14,104 bases of DNA from a virus (IMGVR_UViG_2667527839_000010); one strand, 5' to 3'. Numbered from the stretch's first letter, positions 1-14,104 are shown. The notes: a model not told the origin generated them from the sequence alone. Translations and numbers: made by a program.

Positions 1-1263
1 ATGAAACTCAACGCTCGCCAGATAGAGACCGCAAAGCCGAAAGAGAAAGCTTATAAAATGGCTGATGGAGGTGGTTTGTATCTTGAGGTCTCCCCTAAAG
101 GTTCTAAGTACTGGCGCATGAAATATCGCCGCCCCTCTGACAAAAAGGAAGATCGACTCGCTTTTGGTGTATACCCGACGGTCACTTTGGCTGAAGCGCG
201 GGGTAAGCGCGATGCAGCAAAGAAATTGTTGTCTCAGGGTATTGACCCCAAAGCTGAGCAAAAGGGGGCACAAGCTGAAATTGAGGGGGCATATTTATTT
301 GAAACTATCGCAAGGCAATGGCACGCAAGTAACCTTACTTGGAGCGAAGATCATAGCCGTCGTGTTCTGCTGACACTTGAGCAGTATATTTTCCCCTCGA
401 TAGGTCAAATCGATGCCAGAACGTTGAGAACCAGCCAGCTTCTCAATCCAATCAAAGCTGTCGATACGGCGGGTAAACATGATGTCGCGCAGCGACTGAT
501 GCAGCGCGTAACCGCAATTATGCGTTTTGGTGTGCAGAATGACCTGCTTGAATCAAATCCTGCATGCGATATGGCTGGAGCGCTTTTAAGCGTTAAAGCA
601 ACCCACCACCCAGCACTACCCCCAAAAAGAATCCCTGAGCTTCTTGAAAGACTATCACGCTATAAAGGGCGACTAATGACACGGCTTGCCGTTGAATTAA
701 CGCTACTCACATTTATACGTTCAAGTGAGATGCGTTTTGCTCGCTGGAGTGAGGTTAACTTTGAACGAAGCGAGTGGACAATACCCGGAATTCGTAAGCC
801 TATTCCCGGCGTAAAACACTCTGAGCGTGGGATGAAGATGAAAACTGAACATATTGTTCCGCTTAGCAAACAAGCATTTGATATTTTTAAACGTTTACAT
901 GCCTTGAGTGGTAAAGGTGAGGTTATATTTCCCAGCGATCATGATCCTAAAAAAGTAATGAGTGAAAATACAGTAAATAACGCCTTACGTGTAATGGGAT
1001 ATGATACGAAAACTGAAGTATGTGGTCATGGGTTTAGAACTATGGCGCGTGGTGCGCTAAGTGAGTCGAAACTATGGAATGATGATGCCATTGAAAGACA
1101 GTTAAGCCACGTTGAACGAAAAAATGTGAAAGGTTCATATATGCATACTTCCGAATATCTTGAAGAAAGAAGATTAATGCTGCAATGGTGGGCTGATTAT
1201 ATTGATGCTAATAAGAATGGATCTGTCACACCATATGATTTTGCGCGTATGCATGGAAAATAA
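1..1263 (+). CDS. int: Tyrosine recombinase, P4-type integrase (complete, 420 aa)
   Basis: ORF begins at window base 1 with N-terminus MKLNARQIETAKPKEKAYKMADGGGLYLEV typical of P4-family integrases; C-terminal catalytic region has HGFRTMARGAL (HxxR) and a downstream Tyr region (GSYMHTSEY). TAA stop at 1261-1263. Nested ORFs 164-373, 295-480, 660-869 are frame shadows. Confidence 0.9.
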   Translation: MKLNARQIETAKPKEKAYKMADGGGLYLEVSPKGSKYWRMKYRRPSDKKEDRLAFGVYPTVTLAEARGKRDAAKKLLSQGIDPKAEQKGAQAEIEGAYLFETIARQWHASNLTWSEDHSRRVLLTLEQYIFPSIGQIDARTLRTSQLLNPIKAVDTAGKHDVAQRLMQRVTAIMRFGVQNDLLESNPACDMAGALLSVKATHHPALPPKRIPELLERLSRYKGRLMTRLAVELTLLTFIRSSEMRFARWSEVNFERSEWTIPGIRKPIPGVKHSERGMKMKTEHIVPLSKQAFDIFKRLHALSGKGEVIFPSDHDPKKVMSENTVNNALRVMGYDTKTEVCGHGFRTMARGALSESKLWNDDAIERQLSHVERKNVKGSYMHTSEYLEERRLMLQWWADYIDANKNGSVTPYDFARMHGK

Positions 1264-2931: not shown

Positions 2932-3007
2932 CCTTGTGAGTGCGAAGCCCGACAGTGCAGCAACACTAACCGGGCTTCTGACCAATCCGCTAAATGAGGT
3001 AACGAAG

Positions 3008-3184
3008 ATGGCTAAACAGAAGTGTACCTGGTTATTTGCGGCGATCAACCGCAGTCAACGCAATGCCCGTCCTGTGATGTTAAGGATCACCGCAGATAAC
3101 GAGCGGTCAGCGCGGCGCAGACTTGCCCCGGACTATGTACTGAGCTTTGCCGGGCGCATTCCCTGCGGAGGTGAACATGCGTAA
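3008..3184 (+). CDS. Possible small leader ORF (58 aa) of the early operon
   Basis: ATG 3008 with GAGG at 2996-2999; its stop (TAA 3182-3184) overlaps the next start (ATG 3177), suggesting coupling. This is the only credible part of ORF-track 2450-3184, which is otherwise antisense to the RHH gene. No motif recognised. Confidence 0.3.
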   Translation: MAKQKCTWLFAAINRSQRNARPVMLRITADNERSARRRLAPDYVLSFAGRIPCGGEHA

Positions 3185-3536
3185 TTATCCGCACCCCGGC
3201 GAACGCTGGCAGCATGAACGTGGCTGGACGGTCACGATTATCCGATTAATAGAAGCCTCGCCCTCTGTGGCGCTGGTTAATCCTGAATTCAGCTGTGAAG
3301 TGCTGATACGTCATGACAGCGACAACCAGCTTTCTTCCTGCCCTCTGGCATGGTTTGAACAGCGGTATACGCGCCTGTTTGATGTACCGCTCTTGAAGCC
3401 TGCACCAGCTCCTGCTGGCGGTAGTGGTTCCGGCCCGCTGACACTGCATCCGTCTGTGCTATTTATCCGCTGGCGGGAGCGTAGCATACGGCGTTCTGCT
3501 GAGCCTGACGACGGTCACTATTCAAAGTTTCTCTGA
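3177..3536 (+). CDS. Hypothetical protein (119 aa), early operon
   Basis: ATG 3177 preceded by GGAGGTG (3167-3173). The track start at 3147 is a TTG without RBS. No family assigned. Confidence 0.6.
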   Translation: MRNYPHPGERWQHERGWTVTIIRLIEASPSVALVNPEFSCEVLIRHDSDNQLSSCPLAWFEQRYTRLFDVPLLKPAPAPAGGSGSGPLTLHPSVLFIRWRERSIRRSAEPDDGHYSKFL

Positions 3537-3567
3537 CAAAATACCGCTGAAAACGGAGTAATCCACG

Positions 3568-3852
3568 ATGAATATTTCAAACGGGCACAACGGTGCTCAG
3601 GGCCACACTTTGCCTGAAAAACACAATACCGGTGCTTTTGCCTATGGGTTGTCAGAGGACAGTTTCGGAAAACTGACCCGCGCAAGAAATGCCTGCGACA
3701 TGCTCCAGCTTCTCTTTTCTGAATACCCGTCTCAGGCCGGAGCACTGGACGCTGGCTGTGCGCATGGTGTCGCCGCGCTGATGGAGTACCTGCTGGCAGA
3801 TTTGACGGATATTGCACACAGCTGCGCACTGATTGAAGGAGGTGCCAGATGA
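3568..3852 (+). CDS. Hypothetical protein (94 aa), early operon
   Basis: ATG 3568 with GGAG at 3555-3558; stop overlaps the next start (ATGA at 3849-3852). Confidence 0.65.
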   Translation: MNISNGHNGAQGHTLPEKHNTGAFAYGLSEDSFGKLTRARNACDMLQLLFSEYPSQAGALDAGCAHGVAALMEYLLADLTDIAHSCALIEGGAR

Positions 3853-4232
3853 ACCAGCCGCAGGTTTCCATTTTCCCGGCAGAAATGACCACCGCGCTTT
3901 ACCGGCGGGCTATTGCTTCAGCATGGCGGCAGAAAATGCTGAACGAAACTGGCAGTGATCAGTATGGTCCTCACAGCCTGACGGTGGAGCGTATTGAAAT
4001 GGCCATTGCGCTGCATATCGAGTGCGTACTGATTAACGAGTACGGCGAAGCACAGGGCGCCGCTGCCGCGCTGGCACTGCTGACTGACATGCTGGAGCCG
4101 TCACTGCTGACCGCGCCGCCGGTACTGACCGCGCGCGGCTGTGAAGTGATGGCGGAGATGTACCGCACGCTTCCGGCGGCCTTTGATGACTTCTGCAGTA
4201 CCGGTGTGACGTTGTATCAGGGGGAAGTATGA
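3849..4232 (+). CDS. Hypothetical protein (127 aa), early operon immediately upstream of the primase
   Basis: ATG 3849 preceded by AGGAGG; stop overlaps the primase start (ATGA at 4229-4232). Confidence 0.65.
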   Translation: MNQPQVSIFPAEMTTALYRRAIASAWRQKMLNETGSDQYGPHSLTVERIEMAIALHIECVLINEYGEAQGAAAALALLTDMLEPSLLTAPPVLTARGCEVMAEMYRTLPAAFDDFCSTGVTLYQGEV

Positions 4233-6901
4233 CAATACAGACGGTTACGCAGATTTCAGCTGCCGCACGGGGGAAATGGCCCGTTATTCTCCAGATGCTG
4301 CGTATTGATGTACCTGAAAACGGCAGGCACGGTCCCTGCCCGAAATGTGGGGGCAAGGATCGTTTTCGCCTTGATGACCTTGACGGGCGCGGGACGTGGA
4401 TCTGCAGCCAGTGTGGCAATGGTGACGGTCTGGATCTGGTTAAGCTCGTAACCGGTTACAGCGTCAGAAAGGCTGCGCAGGAGGTGGCGCAGGTGCTTAA
4501 TGTGCCGGATGTGCAGGAACTGCCTGTTAAGCCTGCCAGACAAAAAGCCCCTAAACGCGACATGGGGCTTACCGTGGCGGCGCTGATGAAAGAGAGCCAC
4601 ACGGGAGAAAGCGCCTATCTGACAGGAAAAGGGTTCGCCGGATACCCGGCCTCTCTGACCGGAAGCGTGCAGCATATCAGCGGTAAGGATTTTCCTGCCG
4701 GTTCCCTGCTGTTACCACTCACGACCAACACCGGAGCCGTGACTGGTGCACAGCTTATCGCCCCGACGGGTGAAAAAAGCATACTGCCCGGCAGCACGAT
4801 GAAAGGCGCGTTTGTGTCGCTCAGCCCGTTACCGTCTGAACCACCGGTACAGGTGGTGATTACCGAAGGTTACGCTACGGCGCTGACGGTAAGTCAGCTC
4901 ACTGCCGGATGCGTAGTGGCTGCCATATCTGCGGGCAACCTGCCCAATGTGGCGCAGTCGCTGCGGGCACGCTGGCCTGAGGTAAAAATTATCATCGCCG
5001 GTGATAACGATTTTCAGGACGGAGGTGAGAATCCCGGCAGAGCCTTTGCTGAACGGGCGGCAAAAGCTGTTGGCGGCTGGATGACGCTGCCACCGGGAGA
5101 GATTAAGGCCGACTGGAATGACTTCCATCGGGAGCACGGTATTACCCGCGCCCGTGAAGCCTTTCGTAACGGTCTGGTGCTGTGCGGGGAGGGCCGCACG
5201 CAACTGCCGCACGGGTTCCGTCTTACCCAGGAATATCTCTGGTATGAAAAGCAGGTACAGCGCAACGGTGAGACGGAGATCCAGAACGTCAAAATATGCA
5301 GCCCGCTGCGCGTGACGGCAATCACCTGCGATGCCGATGGCGGTAACTTCGGACGACTGCTGGAATGGGAAGATACGTGGGGTGAGTGTCGCCGCTGGGC
5401 GATGCCGATGGAAATGCTGAGCGGCAGTGGTGAGGAACTGCGCCGGGTACTGCTGGTTAACGGGCTGTCTTATATCAGCACCACCGGTGAGGCACGCGCA
5501 CGCCTGATGGAATATATCTCACTGTGTAAACCGGAACGCCGCGTGACCTGCGTCAGTCGTACTGGCTGGCATGGTCAGGTTTACGTCCTGCAGGATGAGG
5601 TCAGCGGTGAAGGTGCAGAGGGTGTCATTCTCCAGACCACTTCCGTGCAGGGGCGTGATTTCCGCGTGTCGGGCACAACAGAGGAATGGCGGGAGCATGT
5701 ATCCCGCTACTGTACCGGCAACTCCCGCGTGGCATTTGCTGTCAGCCTGGCCTTTGCTGCACCACTGTTACGGCTGGTTGGTATGGACGGCGGCGGCTAC
5801 CACCTCAAAGGGGAATCGACAGACGGTAAGACCACCACCATGAAAGCAGCAACCTCCGTCTGCGGCGGGCCTGACTACTGGCAGACATGGCGGGCCACCG
5901 GCAACGCGCTGGAGGGATGCGCCAGCCGCCGCAACGATGCCGCCATGATGCTTGATGAGATCCGGGAAGTTGACGGACGCGAGGCAGGCAATATCGCCTA
6001 CATGCTGGCAAACGGTCAGGGCAAGGGCCGTGCCGGTACGGACGGTGAGCTGCGTACCCGTAAGCAGTGGCGCCTGTTGTTCTTTTCAACTGGCGAGTTG
6101 TCTCTGACCGAACATGCGGCAAAGGCCGGTGAGCGTACTTTTGCCGGGATGGAAGTCAGGATGATCCAGATCCCCAGCGATTCCGGGAAGTTTGGCGTTT
6201 TTGAGGAGCTGCACGGCTTCGACAGCGGCAAGGCTCTGGCAGAGCATCTTGAATGGGCCACGTCCTGCTACTACGGTTCGCCGTTCCGGGAGTGGCTGAA
6301 AGCACTGACCGCTGATCTTAACGGACTAACGGCACAGGCAAAATCGCTGATGAAGGAATATGCTGCCGCCCTGACTCCGAAAGATGCAGGCAATCAGGTG
6401 GGCCGGGCTGTGAACCGCTTTGCTCTGGTGGCGATGGCAGGTGAACTGGCAACCCGTCTGGGTATCACCGGCTGGCCTGAGGGTGAAGCACTGCGGGCAA
6501 CCCGCGTCTGCCTGAACGCATGGCTGAAAGATCGCGGGCACACCGCCAATCAGGAAGATATCGCCGCACTGGAGCAGGTTCGCAGTTTCTTTACCGCGAA
6601 TCAGTACAGCCGCTTTGCAGACTGGTATGACGAGCGCAACCGCCCCGGCAATATGGTGGGCTGGCGCAGGGTGGAGAAAGGCAGTACCGCGCAGGGCACG
6701 GAAGCTGTCACTACGTTCTATGTCATGCCGTCCGGCTGGAAAGAAATCTGCAGGGGATTTGACCCGCGCAAGGTGGCGCGTCTGTGCGCAGATCGTGGAT
6801 ACCTGCTGCCCTCCACTGATGGCAAACTCCAGACAACCATTCGCCCGCCAGAGATGAATCCCCGCAGGCTCTATGTCTTCAACAGCGAGGTGCCGGGTTA
6901 A
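4229..6901 (+). CDS. Replication primase-helicase, P4 alpha-like (zinc ribbon + TOPRIM + Walker A/B NTPase), 890 aa
   Basis: N-terminal CPKCGGKDRF...WICSQCG (CxxC..CxxC); TOPRIM-like VVITEGYATALTV and IIIAGDNDFQDGG; Walker A HLKGESTDGKTTTM and Walker B-like MMLDEIREV. Uniform coding-like composition over 2.7 kb; internal antisense ORFs are shadows. Confidence 0.9.
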   Translation: MTIQTVTQISAAARGKWPVILQMLRIDVPENGRHGPCPKCGGKDRFRLDDLDGRGTWICSQCGNGDGLDLVKLVTGYSVRKAAQEVAQVLNVPDVQELPVKPARQKAPKRDMGLTVAALMKESHTGESAYLTGKGFAGYPASLTGSVQHISGKDFPAGSLLLPLTTNTGAVTGAQLIAPTGEKSILPGSTMKGAFVSLSPLPSEPPVQVVITEGYATALTVSQLTAGCVVAAISAGNLPNVAQSLRARWPEVKIIIAGDNDFQDGGENPGRAFAERAAKAVGGWMTLPPGEIKADWNDFHREHGITRAREAFRNGLVLCGEGRTQLPHGFRLTQEYLWYEKQVQRNGETEIQNVKICSPLRVTAITCDADGGNFGRLLEWEDTWGECRRWAMPMEMLSGSGEELRRVLLVNGLSYISTTGEARARLMEYISLCKPERRVTCVSRTGWHGQVYVLQDEVSGEGAEGVILQTTSVQGRDFRVSGTTEEWREHVSRYCTGNSRVAFAVSLAFAAPLLRLVGMDGGGYHLKGESTDGKTTTMKAATSVCGGPDYWQTWRATGNALEGCASRRNDAAMMLDEIREVDGREAGNIAYMLANGQGKGRAGTDGELRTRKQWRLLFFSTGELSLTEHAAKAGERTFAGMEVRMIQIPSDSGKFGVFEELHGFDSGKALAEHLEWATSCYYGSPFREWLKALTADLNGLTAQAKSLMKEYAAALTPKDAGNQVGRAVNRFALVAMAGELATRLGITGWPEGEALRATRVCLNAWLKDRGHTANQEDIAALEQVRSFFTANQYSRFADWYDERNRPGNMVGWRRVEKGSTAQGTEAVTTFYVMPSGWKEICRGFDPRKVARLCADRGYLLPSTDGKLQTTIRPPEMNPRRLYVFNSEVPG

Positions 6902-6933
6902 GGCTTTGCGTGAGTCTTATTTATTAAGGGTAA

Positions 6934-7123
6934 CAGGTGAAACAGGTGGAACAACCGTATTTTACAGGGCTGAACCTGTTCCACCTTCTGAAATAGTGAG
7001 GTGGAACAGATGTAACGCCAGCCAATCCGCTGTTCCACCTTGTTACCCGCGATGTTCCACCGGTGCAGTGTATATAAATGCCTTATAAAACAAAGCTGTA
7101 ACACATGTTTCATCTGTTCCACC
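6934..7123. repeat. Iteron cluster: six perfect copies of TGTTCCACC in both orientations (putative ori/crr for the primase-helicase)
   Basis: TGTTCCACC at 6977-6985, 7031-7039, 7053-7061, 7115-7123; its complement GGTGGAACA at 6945-6953 and 7000-7008; degenerate copies at 6934-6944 and 7041-7048. Lies immediately 3' of the primase gene. Confidence 0.6.
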
Positions 7124-7301: not shown

Positions 7302-8045
7302 ATGAACAACACCGCAGTGAATAACAACCTTTCCACTTTTCCGGCTGTAACGCAGCGGGCACTGGAAACCATGAACACAGCCAGAAACGCATGGCTTGAA
7401 GCACGTCGTCAGCAGAAAGCGGCAGCGGATAATATTGCGACAATCCGCCAGCGTCGCGCTGAAATGGAAGCCACGACGAACACACTGAATGAGGAGTGGC
7501 GCACGCTGTTTCGTGAAAGTCAGGGCGTGGTCTCAAAGGAAATGAAAAAACTGCGCACGGAAATTGCGCTGGGACGAGAAACGCTTGAGGATTTTGATGA
7601 GCTGCTGGCGGCTCAGGAAAGCGAAAATGCACTTTTGCCGCAGAAAGCTGCAGAATTAGCCGGAAAGTATATCCACGCGCATAACATTCTTGTGGATATT
7701 CGCGCAAAACAAATCTGGGAGGATTTTATGCAGTCGCATGGAAAAGCGCTTATTCAGACGCTGAGCCTGCTTAAATCCACAATGGGCCGGGAAGCCAGTG
7801 CCGTTGTGGGTGTGGTGAATTCAGTTAATGACCCGGACACAGTGCTGAAAGACTTTATTCATAAACATATCACCAGACCGGCTCTGGCTAACGATGCGAT
7901 GCCTGAGCAGGACCCGGTGTTTAAACTGGCGGGAGTTGCCCCGGATTATGCGGCGCGTCTGGATTTCAGTAATCAACTCTCTCCGGCAGCTATGCATAAA
8001 ATTAAGGTTCGTCAGGAACTTGCTGAGAAGGAGAAAGCAGTATGA
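7302..8045 (+). CDS. sid: Sid-like (P4 external scaffold / size-determination family), 247 aa
   Basis: ATG 7302 with AGGAG at 7292-7296. Size close to P4 Sid; shares N-terminal and central motifs with the Psu-like gene that follows (NAWLEARRQQKAA..., EDFMQSHGKALIQTL), consistent with the Sid/Psu paralogy. Family assignment is from remembered motifs and context, not alignment. Confidence 0.55.
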   Translation: MNNTAVNNNLSTFPAVTQRALETMNTARNAWLEARRQQKAAADNIATIRQRRAEMEATTNTLNEEWRTLFRESQGVVSKEMKKLRTEIALGRETLEDFDELLAAQESENALLPQKAAELAGKYIHAHNILVDIRAKQIWEDFMQSHGKALIQTLSLLKSTMGREASAVVGVVNSVNDPDTVLKDFIHKHITRPALANDAMPEQDPVFKLAGVAPDYAARLDFSNQLSPAAMHKIKVRQELAEKEKAV

Positions 8046-8593
8046 CGGCCCGAGGCACGCCTGACCAGGCACTTACCAGTTTTCGGAATGCCCGTATTCT
8101 GTGGGCCGGACATAATGAGAGCCGAAAAGCCATTGAACAACAGATAACATCTCTCCTCGCTGCCACAGAAAAACCAGCAGATTATGCCCGACAGCTCGAA
8201 TTACTGCGGGAACGTCTGGATGTGCTGAAATGGCAAATTAACTGTGCTGCGCGCGAATGCATTTACTCGCAGCATTTACTGATGGAGGCCTGCACAGAAG
8301 CCGCTCTCAGCAATTTTATGCAGGCGAATGGGGCAGCCCTGACATCTGCACTGGCTCCGTTCCTGAAGGGGCGCGGAGGGGTTGACGTTGCGTCCCGTAT
8401 ATTACGCAGTGCTCTGGTTCGCCAGCTGGCAATAACACCGCCTGAAATTGCCGGGGATTATCGTGAGATCCTGGATGAATCCGGTTTGATGCCTGACCCC
8501 GGGATGATTCGTGATTGCCAGGGTTCTTACACCCCGGCACAACATCTGCGTTTTCAGCAACGCCTGAATGACATTAACGATATACAGGAGTGA
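8042..8593 (+). CDS. psu: Psu-like (polarity suppression / capsid decoration family), 183 aa
   Basis: Start overlaps the Sid-like stop (ATGA at 8042-8045). Motifs LELLRERLDVLKWQINCAARECIYS, FMQANGAALTSALAP and YTPAQHLRFQQR resemble P4 Psu as I recall it. Confidence 0.6.
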   Translation: MTARGTPDQALTSFRNARILWAGHNESRKAIEQQITSLLAATEKPADYARQLELLRERLDVLKWQINCAARECIYSQHLLMEACTEAALSNFMQANGAALTSALAPFLKGRGGVDVASRILRSALVRQLAITPPEIAGDYREILDESGLMPDPGMIRDCQGSYTPAQHLRFQQRLNDINDIQE

Positions 8594-8917: not shown

Positions 8918-9072
8918 ACCCCCTTTTCCTGGCTGACATGAGAGCGCATGAGTGCATGTCTATGGCGCATGAAAACGCATGAGTCTTATGCACCATTTTT
9001 GACGAGAAAACCCTTGTGTGCTGGCTTCTGAGACGATTAATGAGGTGCATGAAAACCAGTCTGTTAAGCGAA

Positions 9073-9100
9073 GCGGGCAGGCGTGCGGGGCTGCCCGCAC
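9073..9100. other. GC-rich palindromic element, possible cos-like site
   Basis: gcgggcag(9073-9080)-N10-ctgcccgc(9091-9098); the core ggcgtgcgggg resembles the start of P2/186 cohesive ends as I recall them, and it sits where P4 carries cos (after the late operon). Confidence 0.25.
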
Positions 9101-9278
9101 TAACGGTGATAATTGTGATGTTGCGATATCAAGAGAGATATAAGAATGCTGTATTCAATAAGGTATTGCTTTCAATTGTTAGATTTATTTTTGTTTAAAT
9201 GTCAATGGTTTAGGTGGTTGCTGGCAGCCAGTACGCTTACTTATTGAAAATCTCGCATCTTTTGCTATCCTAACCCTA

Positions 9279-9479
9279 CCTTTACGCGCGGGATAACAGG
9301 TTTATCCTTGTCGGGCGTTTCGCCAGACACTAATTTATTGTGGACATTTAGGGTTGCGCTTTAGCACTTTCAGCAAGATCCTTCATGCCACTGCGTTCCA
9401 TTCAGGATCTTGCTGAAAGTCTAAAGCGCATCCTTTAGGTAAAGGGGTCGAAGGTGGCTGGTTAGCCACCTTTTCTTTT
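9279..9479 (+). ncRNA. Candidate retron msr-msd non-coding RNA (boundaries tentative)
   Basis: Structured leader upstream of the effector-RT operon. Possible promoter: TTGAAA (9244-9249), 16 bp, TGcTATCCT (9263-9271). Short hairpins ggataa-caggt-ttatcc (9291-9307) and gggcg-ttt-cgcc. Long hairpin with arms 9356-9382 and 9404-9429 (26/27 bp complementary, one bulge, 21-nt loop) as candidate msd. Possible short a1/a2 pair cctttac (9279-9285) / gtaaagg (9439-9445), only 7 bp. No covariance model was run. Confidence 0.4.
9453..9479 (+). terminator. Intrinsic-terminator-like hairpin between the ncRNA region and the effector gene (possible attenuator)
   Basis: 7-bp stem ggtggct (9453-9459) / agccacc (9464-9470), 4-nt loop, then TTTTCTTTT (9471-9479); the effector SD (GGAG 9481-9484) and start (9499) follow directly. 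Confidence 0.5.
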
Positions 9480-9498
9480 GGAGTAGGGGGTCACAAGG

Positions 9499-10485
9499 GT
9501 GAGTGATTCTGCATATATGAATGCATTACAAGAGCAGTTTGGAGATTTGAAATATTCAAATTTCACTGTTCAGTTCATGCCTCCTATTATTTTTGTTTGT
9601 GGTGGGCCGATAAATTCCACTCCAATGAGTGTACGAGACCACATATTTACTTATGTAGCAGGCCACAAACCTGAATTGTCAGATTCTCTTATTTTAGCTG
9701 AGAACTTCCATGACTACTTCAGAGAGGGGGCATATTCAGATCTAATGAGCTTTGAAGATGATATTGCAAATATTTCAACATTAGTTGTTATCTGTTTAGA
9801 AAGTGCAGGTTCGTTAGTTGAGCTTGGATTATTTGTTAATAGGAAGTCTCTAGCTCAAAAATTGCATGTAGTCGCACCATTTGAGGAGATTGAGGGAAAT
9901 GAACGAAAAAATATTCCTGCTAGATCTTCTTTTATATATTTAGGCCCTTTGGAGTATCTTAAAAAAATAGATGAGGCCTCAGTATCAGTTTATCCATGGC
10001 CAAAATCGGATCGTATGAAATATGATGAGGTTGAGCTTATCTACCATGATATTCATTCTAGATTAAAACGTGTAAAAAAAACGGAGCGATATAACCCTGA
10101 AAATACTGGGCACCTAGCTATATTGATTTACGAAATAATCCTTTTATCAGAACCAATCAAGAAAAGCGAAATAGAGTGGGCACTATACTGTATGGATATA
10201 GATGTGCCACAAAAAATAATATCTCGTTTACTTTATTTGCTTGAAAAGATGAAATTAACCTCATCATTATCTTACAGTGGTACAGACTACTTTTATTCCC
10301 GAGGGCATAGAGAGAGTAAACTTAAATTTGGTATCAGTGCTAGTGGTAAAATAAAGGATTCTATGAATATTAAGGTTGCAATCCGACAATCTTACTTAAG
10401 TATGGATGCTAAAGATATGGACGAGACTGCAAAAAAAAGGAAAAATGCTCTAAATCAAATCAATATCGTGCGTGGAGGGGCTTAG
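9499..10485 (+). CDS. Retron effector: nucleoside 2-deoxyribosyltransferase-like (NDT-like) domain protein with a C-terminal putative DNA-binding region, 328 aa
   Basis: N-terminal PIIFVCGGP and STLVVICLESAGSLVELGLFV fit the NDT fold (Rossmann-like strand, then a conserved Glu in a VELG context); C-terminal half is a separate, helix-rich region. GTG start at 9499 with GGAG/AGGGGG upstream; alternative ATG at 9517. Stop TAG 10483-10485 abuts the RT start. Confidence 0.8.
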   Translation: MSDSAYMNALQEQFGDLKYSNFTVQFMPPIIFVCGGPINSTPMSVRDHIFTYVAGHKPELSDSLILAENFHDYFREGAYSDLMSFEDDIANISTLVVICLESAGSLVELGLFVNRKSLAQKLHVVAPFEEIEGNERKNIPARSSFIYLGPLEYLKKIDEASVSVYPWPKSDRMKYDEVELIYHDIHSRLKRVKKTERYNPENTGHLAILIYEIILLSEPIKKSEIEWALYCMDIDVPQKIISRLLYLLEKMKLTSSLSYSGTDYFYSRGHRESKLKFGISASGKIKDSMNIKVAIRQSYLSMDAKDMDETAKKRKNALNQINIVRGGA

Positions 10486-10486
10486 A

Positions 10487-11419
10487 ATGGAGTTGCTAAG
10501 TTATATTTCAAAAGGTCTTTTTCTTAGCGAAGAAGAGGCTAAAAGGTATATTGTTACTATTCCACGCAGATATAAAATTTATCCTATCGCCAAAAGAAAT
10601 GGTAATGGATATAGATTAATTGCACAACCAGCTAGGCAAGTTAAAGCCTTACAGAAGGTAGTAATCAATCATATGTTGGCTAATTTGAAAGTTCATGAAA
10701 ATGCTTTCGCTTATGAAGCCGATAAAAGTATTAGATCTAATGCGTTAATGCATTGTAATAATGATTATTTGCTTAAAATGGATTTTAAAAACTTTTTTAT
10801 GAGTATCAAACCCCATAATCTTTTATCTGTCTTAAAAGATTATGGCGTTGAACTAACTGATACTGATATCTTTGTTCTTAAAAATCTTTTCTTCTGGAAG
10901 TTAAGAAGAAATAGCCCATTACGCCTAAGTGTTGGAGCACCTTCTTCTCCCATTATTTCAAATGCAGTAATGTATTTCTTCGATGAGGAAATATCGAAAA
11001 GATGCAAGGATTTGGATATTACCTACTCAAGGTATGCTGATGATCTTACGTTTAGCACCAAAGTCAAAGGAGCTTTATTTGATGTTCCTAAGTTAGTAAG
11101 GGAAGTTCTTAACGTAGTAAATCTTAGGAATATTAAAATAAACCATGAGAAAACAGTTTTTACCTCAAGGAAGTTTAATAGACATGTAACTGGTGTAACT
11201 ATTACGACTGATGGTTATTTGTCTTTAGGTCGTGATAGAAAGCGTCTTTTAAGAAGTAAAATACATTATTACGTGTGTGGGGTTTTATCTGAGAAAGAAA
11301 TTCTAACCCTTAAAGGAGAATTAGGCTATGCGAAATTTATTGAACATAAATTCTTTACCTCCATGATTAAGAAATATGGGGATGATGTAATCAGCGAAAT
11401 TTCAAAATATGAAATTTAA
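10487..11419 (+). CDS. ret: Retron-type reverse transcriptase, 310 aa from ATG 10487 (315 aa if GTG 10472)
   Basis: Retron RT motifs: YRLIAQPARQVKALQKVV; LLKMDFKNFFMSI (cf. DxxxFFPSI); SVGAPSSPIISNAVMYFFD (cf. QGAPTSP); YSRYADDLTFS (YADD); NHEKT; VTGVTIT (retron-specific VTG). GGAGG at 10474-10478 precedes ATG 10487. AT-rich composition matches the effector gene. Confidence 0.9.
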   Translation: MELLSYISKGLFLSEEEAKRYIVTIPRRYKIYPIAKRNGNGYRLIAQPARQVKALQKVVINHMLANLKVHENAFAYEADKSIRSNALMHCNNDYLLKMDFKNFFMSIKPHNLLSVLKDYGVELTDTDIFVLKNLFFWKLRRNSPLRLSVGAPSSPIISNAVMYFFDEEISKRCKDLDITYSRYADDLTFSTKVKGALFDVPKLVREVLNVVNLRNIKINHEKTVFTSRKFNRHVTGVTITTDGYLSLGRDRKRLLRSKIHYYVCGVLSEKEILTLKGELGYAKFIEHKFFTSMIKKYGDDVISEISKYEI

Positions 11420-11664
11420 TAGCTTGTTGTCCTAATAAATCAGCATGACTTTATCTAGCTTGCGCAAGGTTGGTTCAGAGGTTTGGTTGTTCTGGTTAGG
11501 CTCTGTAAGACGGAACCTAACTAGGCAACTCTATCTTGCTAATTCATTTATTGTGCTAGTTAGCAACAATAAGATTTTGTTGGGGGCACAAAATGGGGCA
11601 CAAGTCATAAGCTATAAAATTTTTATCATCATGTTCAATGAGTTATATAGTTATTCTATTCCGG

Positions 11665-11696
11665 CCTTCGCACCTTCGCACCTTCGCACCTTCGCA
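11665..11696. repeat. Perfect tandem repeat (CCTTCGCA)x4 within a tRNA-Leu 3'-end-like sequence (putative degenerate attR)
   Basis: ccttcgca at 11665-11672, 11673-11680, 11681-11688, 11689-11696, preceded by ttctattccgg and followed by ccatcgg. The context TTCtAtTCCGGCCTTCG-CACC...A resembles the 3' end of E. coli tRNA-Leu(CAA) leuX (..TTCGAGTCCGGCCTTCGGCACCA) as I remember it. Confidence 0.85.
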
Positions 11697-11712
11697 CCAT
11701 CGGAACATCAAT

Positions 11713-11735
11713 AGACGTCAACGGACGTTTTTTTT
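11713..11735 (+). terminator. Short hairpin plus T8 run downstream of the retron/att region
   Basis: acgtc (11715-11719) / gacgt (11724-11728), 4-nt loop, then 8 T (11728-11735). The stem is short, so confidence is moderate. Confidence 0.4.
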
Positions 11736-11901
11736 ATGACTGAAATCCGCGCCACACAAGGCTTTTCGCTATTTTTCGCTCAACCTAAGTCAACCTACAT
11801 CAACTTACTGATGTGGATACAGCTACAGCTGCGGCTATATCCCGATTCGATAATGTTTGTACCCACACAAAACCCTTGAAAGGCTACAAGGCTGAAATTG
11901 T

Positions 11902-12087
11902 CTAAACCATAGAGATGATTTTTATGATCCAGTCTTTCTCTTGTTGAGATAGTTCCAGTTTGCTCACTCGTGTTAAGAAGGTATTGATCACCTGAACATC
12001 CGAATTGGTGAGCCTATTTAATAGAGCGGGTGGTATACCTTTACTAACAATTGCTTTGCGGTGACTTTCGTAGTTTTTATTACTCAT
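11902..12087 (-). CDS. Hypothetical small protein (61 aa)
   Basis: Open frame only; no motif recognised; may be a fragment together with the upstream 77-aa ORF. Confidence 0.3.
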   Translation of the reverse strand: MSNKNYESHRKAIVSKGIPPALLNRLTNSDVQVINTFLTRVSKLELSQQEKDWIIKIISMV

Positions 12088-12152
12088 TGGTGATCCTCAA
12101 ATATCATTGTATGGCGGCATTGATCGTTTCCAGCAACCTTTACTTACTCACT

Positions 12153-12386
12153 TCAAACTGCATCCTCGTAGACTGTTCCACTACAATAATCGAAAAGGCG
12201 CGGATGTCCATTCAGGTATCCCGCTAATACGTATAGCAATAACAATGGTTTATGCGGTGCGCGCTGTTCACCCTTATGCCAGATTTTTATATTGGCAATT
12301 GCCTGCTGTAGCGATTTACTGGAAGCCATTGATATCCCTGGCAGTGAAATAATTGCGATCATGCTCGCAAATTTTCTGCTGTTCAA
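12153..12386 (-). CDS. Hypothetical small protein (77 aa), hydrophobic N-terminus
   Basis: Open frame only; overlapped on the + strand by an implausible 81-aa ORF (12107-12352); could be a gene remnant. Confidence 0.25.
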   Translation of the reverse strand: MNSRKFASMIAIISLPGISMASSKSLQQAIANIKIWHKGEQRAPHKPLLLLYVLAGYLNGHPRLFDYCSGTVYEDAV

Positions 12387-12465
12387 GCCTGCAAGTGAAG
12401 ATATATTACCTTGATCTCATTTGTTTTTTTGCTGCTTGTTCTGAGAACGTATAAGGACATTCTCC

Positions 12466-13116
12466 ATGAATAAACTCCCCGATCATCTTCCTCGGCGGTA
12501 TATCATCAAAGCTATTCATTTATGGGATGCGGGAGAAACTCATCAGTTCCAGCCTGCACGGTTGTATGAGATTGAATATCATGGCCGACGTTACCCCTCG
12601 AAGGCGATTGCTGGTATCGCAGCGACATTGATGACGGGGACGCAATTTACCCCTGCGGATTTCACCGGCGGAATAAAATCTAAATGCGTCAAGCTACTTA
12701 TAGATCAGGGATTTCATATTCATCAGGATAAAGCCGCTGCGGCTCCCATAGCCGATGTTCTGTTCCCGGATGAGTTGCCGTCGCAGGGGACCTACGTTGA
12801 AGGTGCGGCGATAAAGGTGACGGTAAACCGCTATGAACGCGATAAAAAAGCTCGCGAGAAAGCAGTCGAACATCACGGATGCCAGTGCAACGTATGCGGC
12901 GTTGATCTGGTGAAGATCTATGGCGATATCGCTGAGGGTTTTATCCATATGCATCACCTGGTGCCGCTTTCAGCCATTAAAGAGGATTACCAGCTGGATC
13001 CAGTTAATGATTTACTTCCTGTGTGCCCTAATTGCCATGCGATGCTGCACCGGCGCAAACCACCGTTTACGCCGGAGGAGTTAAAAGCGCTGATGGATGC
13101 GAATAAATCAAATTAA
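12466..13116 (+). CDS. HNH endonuclease family protein (McrA-like C-terminal HNH nuclease with an N-terminal putative DNA-recognition domain), 216 aa
   Basis: C-terminal CQCNVCGVDL...FIHMHHLVPLS...DPVNDLLPVCPNCHAML matches the HNH zinc-finger nuclease motif. ATG 12466 with AAGGA (12453-12457). Confidence 0.8.
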   Translation: MNKLPDHLPRRYIIKAIHLWDAGETHQFQPARLYEIEYHGRRYPSKAIAGIAATLMTGTQFTPADFTGGIKSKCVKLLIDQGFHIHQDKAAAAPIADVLFPDELPSQGTYVEGAAIKVTVNRYERDKKAREKAVEHHGCQCNVCGVDLVKIYGDIAEGFIHMHHLVPLSAIKEDYQLDPVNDLLPVCPNCHAMLHRRKPPFTPEELKALMDANKSN

Positions 13117-13123
13117 TGAACGC

Positions 13124-14104
13124 TCACCTTTCGCGCCAAAACTGCAAAATTGCTTCTACAAACCTGTCAGAAATAATCCCCCGACGGGCTGCCGCGCTGA
13201 AATGACTGCTTCGCAGTGCCGTCGTCCAGTTCTCCGGTGACCGGTACGCTGAACCGTAATATCCCGTGCTTAAATCGTCCGGATCTTCATCAGGCGCGTT
13301 CGTCAGTCCTCTTTCACCTTGTTGCTGGAAGTCGACGAAAATAATATTGGCTAAAACATTATTTTGATAATTGCCATAAATAACTTCATACGCATGAGGG
13401 AAATTTTCTTTCCAGTACCAGGTGGTATCGCCGCAAAACCATGGTGCGTCAGTAATATTATTAAGCTGAGAATGGTATTGTTTTAGATCCCTACGAAAGG
13501 CTTCAACCATATGATTAAAGTGTTGAGGATGTGACGCGTAGTCACTGGTCATTAAGTCAAATTCGCCTTGCATCCAGCATACGCCGAGGAATTTGTTCTG
13601 CGGGTTTTTTACCAGTGCGGCTCGCGTTCTGCTGACTAAATCCTGGTATAGCGGAGTATCCGTTCCCCAACGACAAGCATCATGGCTGGCTCCGTGCCGT
13701 TCTGAATATGTCCCTTCGCTGCCCGCTGTAAAAGCCGATCCGCCACGGCAACATGGAACGATGAGAACCCCTGCATTATCAGGAATAAAGGGTAGTAATT
13801 TCCGTGCAATATGCAGTGCCTGGCCAACGGTGCCGTACTGTGTTTGATGATTCGTTGCCAGAGGATGGTGATAACCCTGCATATCCTGAACATCGTGTGG
13901 GCAGTGAGTCAGTGGAATAATGTCGTTAAAGTGACATGACGGGCCTCCGGGATGCGTATGCGCAAATCTCGCTAATTGTTTAATTCTGGGATGAGGCGCA
14001 TCTTCACTGTCCGGTAATGGCAGTCCTTCGCCATACGCCATGGCATTAGACTGACCAGCAACGGTAAGAACATAGTAATAATCGGGCGATATTATTGCGT
14101 CCAT
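13124..14104 (-). CDS. nanS: SGNH-hydrolase family sialate O-acetylesterase (NanS/YjhS-like), 326 aa; start codon at the window edge
   Basis: N-terminal YYYVLTVAGQSNAMAYGEG (GQSN block of SGNH/sialate O-acetylesterase family); length 326 aa matches chromosomal NanS as I recall. Converges on the HNH gene with a 7-bp gap. Window ends at its ATG, so an upstream extension cannot be excluded. Confidence 0.75.
   Translation of the reverse strand: MDAIISPDYYYVLTVAGQSNAMAYGEGLPLPDSEDAPHPRIKQLARFAHTHPGGPSCHFNDIIPLTHCPHDVQDMQGYHHPLATNHQTQYGTVGQALHIARKLLPFIPDNAGVLIVPCCRGGSAFTAGSEGTYSERHGASHDACRWGTDTPLYQDLVSRTRAALVKNPQNKFLGVCWMQGEFDLMTSDYASHPQHFNHMVEAFRRDLKQYHSQLNNITDAPWFCGDTTWYWKENFPHAYEVIYGNYQNNVLANIIFVDFQQQGERGLTNAPDEDPDDLSTGYYGSAYRSPENWTTALRSSHFSAAARRGIISDRFVEAILQFWRER

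Follow-up and report, generated by a model that had tools for sequence, protein, structure and literature searches.

The right end of a P4-like satellite in the leuX locus of E. coli poses a question of ownership. In a stretch of viral DNA of 14,104 nt (IMGVR_UViG_2667527839_000010; the whole of this stretch is called the window below), an 8-bp sequence is repeated in tandem beside what resembles the 3′ end of a tRNA-Leu gene. An earlier note, made from the sequence alone, had read this arrangement as the core copy of the satellite's attR, altered by a 1-nt deletion and by slipped-strand amplification, and had suggested that the alteration may have immobilized the element. The questions are whether the site is an attachment junction, whether its lesion belongs to the satellite or to the chromosome that received it, and whether the repeat has a role of its own.

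The window holds a P4-like satellite, with integrase, primase, Psu and a retron St85 cargo, inserted in leuX (Table 1). The corresponding locus of E. coli strain 81 (NZ_CP088131.1, our locus L001) shares 100% identity with the window across 11300-12500. Its genes run in the order ahr, tRNA-Leu, integrase, P4-like genes, retron St85 effector and reverse transcriptase, and then a restriction-enzyme fragment, an HNH gene, the nan genes and the fim genes. The tRNA-Leu gene lies at 2823-2907 and int at 3072-4334 of L001; the integrase ATG coincides with base 1 of the window, and intact leuX, whose end is 164 nt further upstream, stands outside the window. This tRNA (anticodon CAA) terminates in ...GGTTCGAGTCCGGCCTTCGGCACCA, which is the leuX 3′ end given in the earlier note, and alignment to the upstream tRNA, the check proposed there, showed the predicted 3′ end and not an unrelated one. 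The effector and reverse transcriptase genes (9499..11419) are the final genes before the right end of the satellite. About 205 genomes carry the element, and only 3 of them carry it in the setting seen in the window.

Table 1. Features of the window; the last line refers to strain 536.
Feature	Position	Strand	Basis or remark
P4-family tyrosine integrase, left (attL) end	1..1263	+	Pfam Arm-DNA-bind_3, Phage_int_M, Phage_integrase
Zn-ribbon/Toprim/DUF927 primase	4229-6901		
Two Psu-like proteins	7302-8593		
Retron St85-family effector	9499-10485	+	RefSeq annotation of matching locus
Reverse transcriptase	10472-11419	+	RefSeq annotation of matching locus; Pfam RVT_1
Satellite attachment-site P arm, element-specific	11420..11656	+	Same arm found elsewhere with other right sides
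Putative arm-type integrase-binding repeats TTGGGGGCACAA and AATGGGGCACAA (adjacent, 12-bp)	11580..11603	+	Match the P4 pair
att core, left part TATTCCGGCCTTCG	11657..11670	+	11660-11670 identical to leuX
8-bp tandem array	11665-11698	+	CCTTCGCA x 4.25, equivalently TTCGCACC x 4 after CC
Old leuX trailer TCGGAACATCAAT and Rho-independent terminator	11700..11735	+	Terminator-like match
P′ arm remnant of older KpLE2/L012-type leuX island, integrase gene lost	11736..11885	+	L012/L011 identity
HNH protein	12466-13116		
SASA-domain esterase	13124-14104	-	
PAI II right junction, strain 536	~4,837,390		

Several features of the satellite and its surroundings were noted in passing. The primase ORF of the window encodes 890 aa, and its counterpart in strain 81 is annotated at ~600 aa (L001 7300-9102); the two differ by an 870-bp deletion or insertion inside the gene. 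The retron St85 pair occupies the P4 cargo position, from the delta/ogr-like gene to the right end (window 9016-11419); no Rfam match at gathering thresholds marked an msr-msd RNA, which would be expected upstream of 9499. The G+C content is ~33-35% in the accessory region after int (1000-2500) and in the retron cargo (9500-11500) and 56-60% in the replication core (3000-7000), and such sharp shifts within one element fit modular acquisition of cargo. Beyond the satellite, the SASA-domain esterase, which we take to be nanS from its position beside nanM, is a complete ORF of 326 aa in the window; its counterpart in L001, L002, L003, L011, L014-L016, L018 and strain 536 carries the annotation of a truncated pseudogene.

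The perfect fourfold array described from sequence alone was confirmed by two methods. Tandem Repeats Finder reported a period-8 array at 11665-11702 (4.8 copies, 96% matches, consensus CCTTCGCA), and an exact scan located four perfect units, starting at 11665, 11673, 11681 and 11689, within an unbroken period-8 run of 34 nt at 11665-11698 (4.25 copies). First-order Markov simulation of the window, repeated 200 times, gave such runs of at most 18 nt, and CCTTCGCA is absent from the rest of the window on both strands. The sequence of 11640-11700 is gagttatatagttattctattccggCCTTCGCACCTTCGCACCTTCGCACCTTCGCACCAtcgg, and the surroundings of the array (ttctattccggCCTTCGCACC...CACCAtcgg) agree with the earlier reader's quotation. 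At its left, the array overlaps TCCGGCCTTCG (11660-11670), which is identical to leuX and occurs once; nothing else in the window matches the leuX 3′ end. To the right of the array, base 11699 (A) finishes the old ...CCA of the displaced leuX end. Just ~17 nt of the T-arm and the 3′ strand of the acceptor remain, which falls short of a tRNA gene or pseudogene, and neither a tRNA call (ARAGORN) nor an Rfam match at gathering thresholds was obtained in the window.

The leuX end aligns best to the window at 11654-11674, where 19 of 22 positions match and a single 1-nt gap is opened (local alignment). To the right of CCTTCG the copy departs from leuX, GGC having become GC through a 1-nt deletion. 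So short an alignment, at a score that was reached in 1 of 200 simulations, could on its own be taken for an unrelated microsatellite that resembles a tRNA end by chance. The position of the site speaks against that explanation. In ~3,180 of 5,426 complete E. coli genomes, homology to the window sets in at position 11653 or 11660, at the core copy, and the sequence to the left of this boundary is common to only 3 genomes. Furthermore, the arm geometry is that of P4, as described below, and an identical flank follows intact leuX in other strains, so that we assign chance resemblance a negligible probability.

The relation to P4 extends over both sides of the junction. P4 has the same target gene as the satellite (20-bp core GAGTCCGGCCTTCGGCACCA, leuX 3′ end; X51522), and the two agree in the family of the tRNA-proximal integrase, in the left core sequence and in a pair of 12-bp GGGGGCA arm repeats to the left of the core. 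The candidate arm-type repeats TTGGGGGCACAA and AATGGGGCACAA match the pair annotated in P4 as 'attP arm sequence repeat' (GTGGGGGCACAA and AAGGGGGCATAT; X51522), and the distance from repeats to core is 53 nt in the window and P4 alike. Three matching repeats also lie beside the integrase gene on the attL side in strain 81 (L001 3020-3075). Among 71 distinct left arms, leuX-like conservation is limited to the interval from position -8 (GAGTCCGG) through CCTTCG and drops to background further left; its left edge coincides with the left edge of the annotated 20-bp core of P4. In contrast to P4, the left part of the satellite's core has diverged (TAT for GAG). The right copy also differs: it is a G-deleted, 8-bp-amplified chromosomal relic, whereas a perfect repeat is described for P4, and it is followed by the arm of an older island, not by native chromosome.

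A competing attachment site, which the earlier note had allowed for near 13117-13123, did not emerge. Searches for the 23-nt leuX end (up to 3 mismatches) and for the 11-nt core (up to 1 mismatch) yielded no window match to the former and no copy of the latter besides 11660-11670, and 13117-13123 was without relevant sequence. The island boundary, the matching leuX end upstream of int, the P4-spaced arm repeats and the single core match together identify the site as the right attachment junction (attR) of the P4-like satellite, bearing out the note's assignment of the core copy: the copy of the tRNA 3′ end is distal to the integrase, and the intact tRNA and the integrase lie at the opposite end. 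For annotation, the right end of the satellite is fixed at about 11656-11670, and 11700-13120 is the remnant of an older, unrelated island outside it. A free attP or circular junction of the element was not found among viral contigs, searched with P-arm and P′-arm patterns, or phage records, and when E. coli replicons were searched with a synthetic P-core-P′ sequence only attL and attR matched; we infer, rather than read, the element's own core sequence.

To the right of the core, 11671-11885 consists of a former 3′ end of leuX, its trailer and terminator, and an arm left by an older KpLE2-like island that no longer has an integrase. This identity follows from the same trailer and arm behind intact leuX in other genomes, from the layout of K-12 and from a homologous terminator. 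In two loci (L012 and L013), intact leuX is followed by exactly TCGGAACATCAATAGACGTCAACGGACGT, the same 37 nt as in the window, and then by an arm that reaches the ATG of a 419-aa integrase; leuX is joined directly to an L012-type arm in about 320 genomes. Window 11700-11885 is 88% identical to the L012 arm, 94% to that of L011 and 75% to that of K-12, and the similarity to L012 stops where the ATG of the L012 integrase sits. The layout in K-12 is leuX, arm, intB and a phosphorothioate-dependent restriction enzyme; the window retains the arm, a fragment of the phosphorothioate-dependent restriction enzyme and the HNH gene.

The predicted terminator, a stem-loop at 11713-11730 with a T8 run at 11728-11735, is the positional homologue of the K-12 leuX Rho-independent terminator, which was shown by experiment to be functional (PMC2811032). 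Its stems have undergone compensatory changes, with GACGTC/GACGTC in the window, GACCTC/GAGGTC in K-12 and L011, and GAGCCGCT/AGCGGCT in L019 and strain 536. As at the left end of KpLE2 in K-12 (PMC2811032), CCA is followed by ~13 nt, a 7-bp hairpin and a T-run. Unlike KpLE2, the trailer of the window no longer stands behind the tRNA, the integrase gene is gone and the arm, which is closer to L012-type islands (88%) than to KpLE2 (75%), is a mosaic. We compared window 11700-11760 with L011, L012, K-12 (L025), L019 and strain 536 (L027); over its first 37 nt the trailer equals the L012 type, and beyond them it is near-identical to the K-12/L011 type. In strain HCP6S3_I1 (L011), intact leuX is joined directly to the remnant, with a K-12-type trailer and without the array; this arrangement may reflect a secondary deletion between homologous arms instead of an ancestral empty site. 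The old arm also contains a second repeat, detected by Tandem Repeats Finder at 11780-11808 and made of 10-bp direct units of the TCAACnTAcA type (TCAACCTAAG, TCAACCTACA and TCAACTTACT). Such units are kept in arms before intact integrases (four copies at L012 5170-5215; K-12 L025 ~3575-3610) and are probably arm-type binding sites of the lost KpLE2/L012-type integrase.

If the deletion and the fourfold amplification had arisen in the element's own attR after integration and had locked the element in place, the array should be a property of the satellite. We compared array copy number across strains, as the earlier note had proposed. With a genome probe, E. coli genomes showed 7, 4, 3, 2 or 1 copies, 3 being the commonest. 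A search of metagenome and viral contigs with the final unit and its flank yielded 94 junctions: 65 with one copy, 4 with two, 18 with three, 6 with four and 1 with five. Adding the E. coli loci brings the total to 104 junctions, among which 68 different left 30-mers occur. Because the lesioned unit was part of the metagenome pattern, lesioned and intact units can be compared without bias only in a small set of viral contigs (8 vs 2). Arrays of two or more copies all had the window-type flank ...GGACGTTTTTTT(T)ATGACTGAAATCCGCGCC (30 of 31 loci of that type), and the other right-arm variants carried one lesioned copy each and no arrays. The window-type right flank itself bears 1-5 or 7 copies across genomes and contigs. 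Copy number, which ranges from 1 to 7, is thus tied to the right flank rather than to the element.

The left sides of the arrays are diverse. At least 14 left-arm families abut arrays, among them P4's own arm (39 array-bearing junctions). Unrelated islands lie to the left of four copies in L002 (ggCGAGTCCGG) and L003 (aaTTCGAGTCCGG), of three copies in L015 (tGTTCGAGTCCGG) and of seven copies, including one variant unit (TTCTCACC), in L014 (ggtgCGG); another P4-like element precedes two copies in L016. Conversely, the window's P arm recurs in L017, L019 and L001, and at ~96% identity in L124 and L125, with differing right sides. The same arm meets a single CCTTCGCACCA in strain AR_0137 (L017, NZ_CP021879.1), where an L012-type island with an integrase pseudogene follows, and a single lesioned copy with a third trailer type in an IMG/VR contig (L019). 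Arrays that track the right flank, unrelated left arms that abut the array and an element arm that meets single-copy lesions elsewhere place the array and the 1-nt deletion on the chromosome side; they are older than the satellite insertion and common to many E. coli strains.

These data leave little room for a lesion that arose within the satellite. The core copy at the element's right end is altered, and the collections searched held no circular form or attP of the element, both as expected of a locked element. However, the same four-copy array and flank follow the unrelated islands L002 and L003 and also occur in L005, many left-arm families share the array, the arrays go with the right flank and not with the element, and three right-hand settings for one element arm mean that the element has been mobile. 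In addition, PAI II of strain 536, described below, is excised and inserted again although its junction has a lesion at the same position. We consider an origin in the element's own attR very improbable. The altered core of the earlier note stands insofar as the deletion and the 8-bp amplification are both present; its attribution to damage of the element's own attR does not, and the suggested immobilization is left unsupported by an array that so many left-arm families share and by an element arm found in other settings.

A second alternative would let the lesion travel with the element: the attP core would lack the G, exchange would take place to the right of the lesion, within CACCA, each insertion would produce a G-less attR, and leuX would be untouched. 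That one P arm is found with CCTTCGCACCA in the window, L017 and L019 would be economically explained in this way. The same 1-nt deletion adjoins at least three trailer and arm variants (the window type, the L012 type in L017 and the L019 type), which requires shared descent with recombination between arms, repeated events or a lesion borne by elements. Against the last of these, the attP core of P4 has GG (X51522), and P4's own P arm meets both lesioned single copies and arrays. Junctions of the attR type with intact GG were also found, in L122 (a P4-like arm) and L123, and a single left arm occurs in both states, intact in L123 and lesioned in L106. The strict linkage of arrays to one right flank and the behavior of PAI II, where the published account of re-insertion ('restoring the complete tRNA gene', PMC3202238) implies an exchange left of the lesion, are likewise difficult to reconcile with an element-borne lesion, which we regard as unlikely. 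Very probably, then, 11657-11699 is a satellite attR of which the satellite supplied the left part and an older leuX relic supplied the right part, with the lesion and the array. Many elements have been exchanged at this lesioned site by site-specific recombination since the lesion arose.

PAI II of uropathogenic E. coli strain 536 offers the closest parallel. It occupies the leuX site with a P4-like integrase and an 18-bp direct repeat, and it ends in GTTCGAGTCCGGCCTTCG|ACCA, the 18-bp leuX repeat followed by a 2-nt lesion. As in the window, the displaced leuX end degenerates right after ...CCGGCCTTCG, and a variant of the same terminator-bearing trailer follows. Unlike the window, PAI II shows a 2-nt deletion (CCTTCG|ACCA) and no tandem array, and its left arm and island are unrelated to the P4-like satellite. 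The consequence of PAI II loss for leuX is reportedly described directly in earlier strain 536 literature. Re-insertion of PAI II took place in the deletion strain 536-21 (PMC3202238); the published wording quoted above implies that excision had left leuX incomplete, and hence that strands are exchanged left of the PAI II lesion. By analogy, the same behavior is predicted for the locus in the window.

Based on these comparisons we propose the following history for the relic. An earlier insertion would have displaced the former leuX 3′ end from the tRNA gene, and the relic, free of tRNA selection, would have lost one acceptor-stem G (CTTCGGC to CTTCGC). This loss would convert CCTTCGGCACC into CC-TTCGCA-CC, and replication slippage between the CC dinucleotides could then duplicate the 8-bp unit, with later gains and losses being easy. 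From the perfection of the units and their polymorphism we infer that slippage was the origin of the array. At the present junction, the satellite side comprises the P arm with its arm-type repeats and core sequence to about ...TCCGG, and the chromosome side the former leuX 3′ end, the old trailer, the terminator and the decayed KpLE2-like island arm.

The same model would account for the diversity of left arms. The lesion falls just right of GAGTCCGGCCTTCG, the segment common to all junctions, so that P4-family integrases could still exchange strands to its left. Exchange left of the lesion means that many elements could replace one another at the lesioned site, each newcomer bringing a good leuX 3′ end at attL and inheriting the relic at attR. 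Judged from the junction sequences, strand exchange would occur within GAGTCCGGCCTTCG, probably inside the leuX-identical 11660-11670, with the lesion in the right half-site and inherited from the target. The junctions thus indicate that, for P4-family integrases, strand exchange would lie to the left of core position 15 and damage to the right half-site would be tolerated, and since many elements stand in exact register with the array, the site must have served repeatedly as a recombination substrate. Replacement could follow either of two routes: a newcomer inserts in tandem and the inner element is then excised, or the resident excises first and leaves a damaged leuX that the insertion of a newcomer repairs. 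The usual tandem neighbor of the retron-bearing satellite is an L012-type island with a frameshifted integrase pseudogene (L017 and many of the ~205 genomes), and one lesioned core separates the two; such a pair is the tandem-island state that the replacement model predicts. The relic can be viewed as a natural record of serial island replacement at a tRNA hotspot, in which one lesion is joined to dozens of elements.

The model also makes a prediction about excision. Precise excision would rejoin the lesioned or arrayed end to leuX and is predicted to yield a non-functional tRNA; in a simulated excision product, ARAGORN found just a shifted, mismatched acceptor stem and no A73. The predicted products are an attP consisting of TTCTATTCCGGCCTTCGGCACCA and TTAACAC... 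and a chromosome of the form leuX...CCTTCG(CACCTTCG)nCACCA. An attP, circular or packaged form that contained TTCTATTCCGGCCTTCGCACC and the array would contradict the chromosome-side reading. Full-length leuX with the array or with the single lesion was not found among the 5,426 complete genomes or the 94 metagenome and viral junctions, and with a single-lesion leuX query the top matches were 246 nt long against the 245-nt query, meaning that leuX was intact in them. The missing damaged intermediate fits counter-selection or a short-lived state. The predicted cost of losing any resident leuX island would be tRNA-Leu5; strain 536 implies this loss on excision for one island, and the junction survey suggests that it is widespread.

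These considerations led us to a more speculative idea, that of a 'tRNA hostage', in which the lesioned leuX end, with the array as one of its alleles, outlasts island exchanges, precise excision kills leuX, empty sites are selected against and re-occupation by any element with a good 3′ end is favored. We put it forward tentatively and doubt it more than we credit it; its basis is the presence of at least 68 distinct left arms at the relic and of damaged leuX in 0 of 5,426 genomes. If true, it would help to explain the near-constant occupation of leuX together with fast island turnover, and the 8-bp amplification would make reversion of the lesion essentially impossible.

We also considered that the repeat is functional, as a stack of core half-sites that tunes excision, as a phase-variable switch or as a regulatory or RNA element of the retron operon. 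The unit does include the would-be right-hand (B′) core half-site sequence, its copy number varies as in contingency loci, and the array is probably transcribed, since terminator prediction gave nothing between the reverse transcriptase gene and the repeat. However, copy numbers from 1 to 7 show no favored functional class and single-copy sites are common. A single ORF spans the array (11445-11714, 89 aa); it is chimeric, part element and part chromosome, and is altered, and not kept, whenever the left arm changes. Neither Rfam nor tRNA prediction recognized the array, and it was found in no other Escherichia species in a scan of one genome per species. The array lies outside the coding sequence and the promoter of any conserved gene, which does not fit a phase-variable contingency locus, and a single weak promoter-like match in 11350-12150 is no more than expected by chance. 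A function of any of these kinds seems to us quite unlikely, and the array itself gives no evidence of one.

The array instead is a variable-number repeat within a displaced, G-deleted old leuX acceptor end. Its identical head-to-tail units differ in number among genomes with the same flanks: N9 and AMSCJX03 (L124 and L125), which carry the ~96%-identical element variant and share both flanks, have 4 and 3 copies, respectively. In its perfect units and strain-variable number it resembles the slipped-strand VNTRs used for typing or found in contingency loci; unlike contingency loci, it stands outside any gene or promoter, provides no expression switch and is located inside a recombination-site relic. 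Degenerate displaced tRNA ends at island borders are already known and slippage repeats are ordinary, and the repeat string was not found in any paper in a literature search. Modestly new are that the array is a widespread, chromosome-linked and variable repeat inside a leuX attR relic and that one lesioned relic has been handed down through dozens of island replacements. The repeat could also serve as a cheap typing marker for the leuX locus.

Two contigs required separate inspection. A 2.8-kb contig labeled as an uncultured Lachnospiraceae MAG (L005, CAKRJY010000038.1) holds an E. coli leuX-locus junction with a four-copy array and is probably an E. coli contig that was misbinned; apart from this E. 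coli-like contig, array matches in other species look like chance occurrences in G+C-rich genomes. A human gut metagenome contig (L042, OWXB01000246.1) has a right junction with a longer leuX fragment, CCGTAGAAATACGTGCCGGTTCGAGTCCGG, which runs from the variable arm onward over ~37 nt left of the lesioned core and is preceded by non-tRNA DNA. We rejected this contig as a case of damaged leuX, as it holds only the 37-nt tRNA fragment; it represents an element of another integrase class, whose core at the leuX hotspot is longer.
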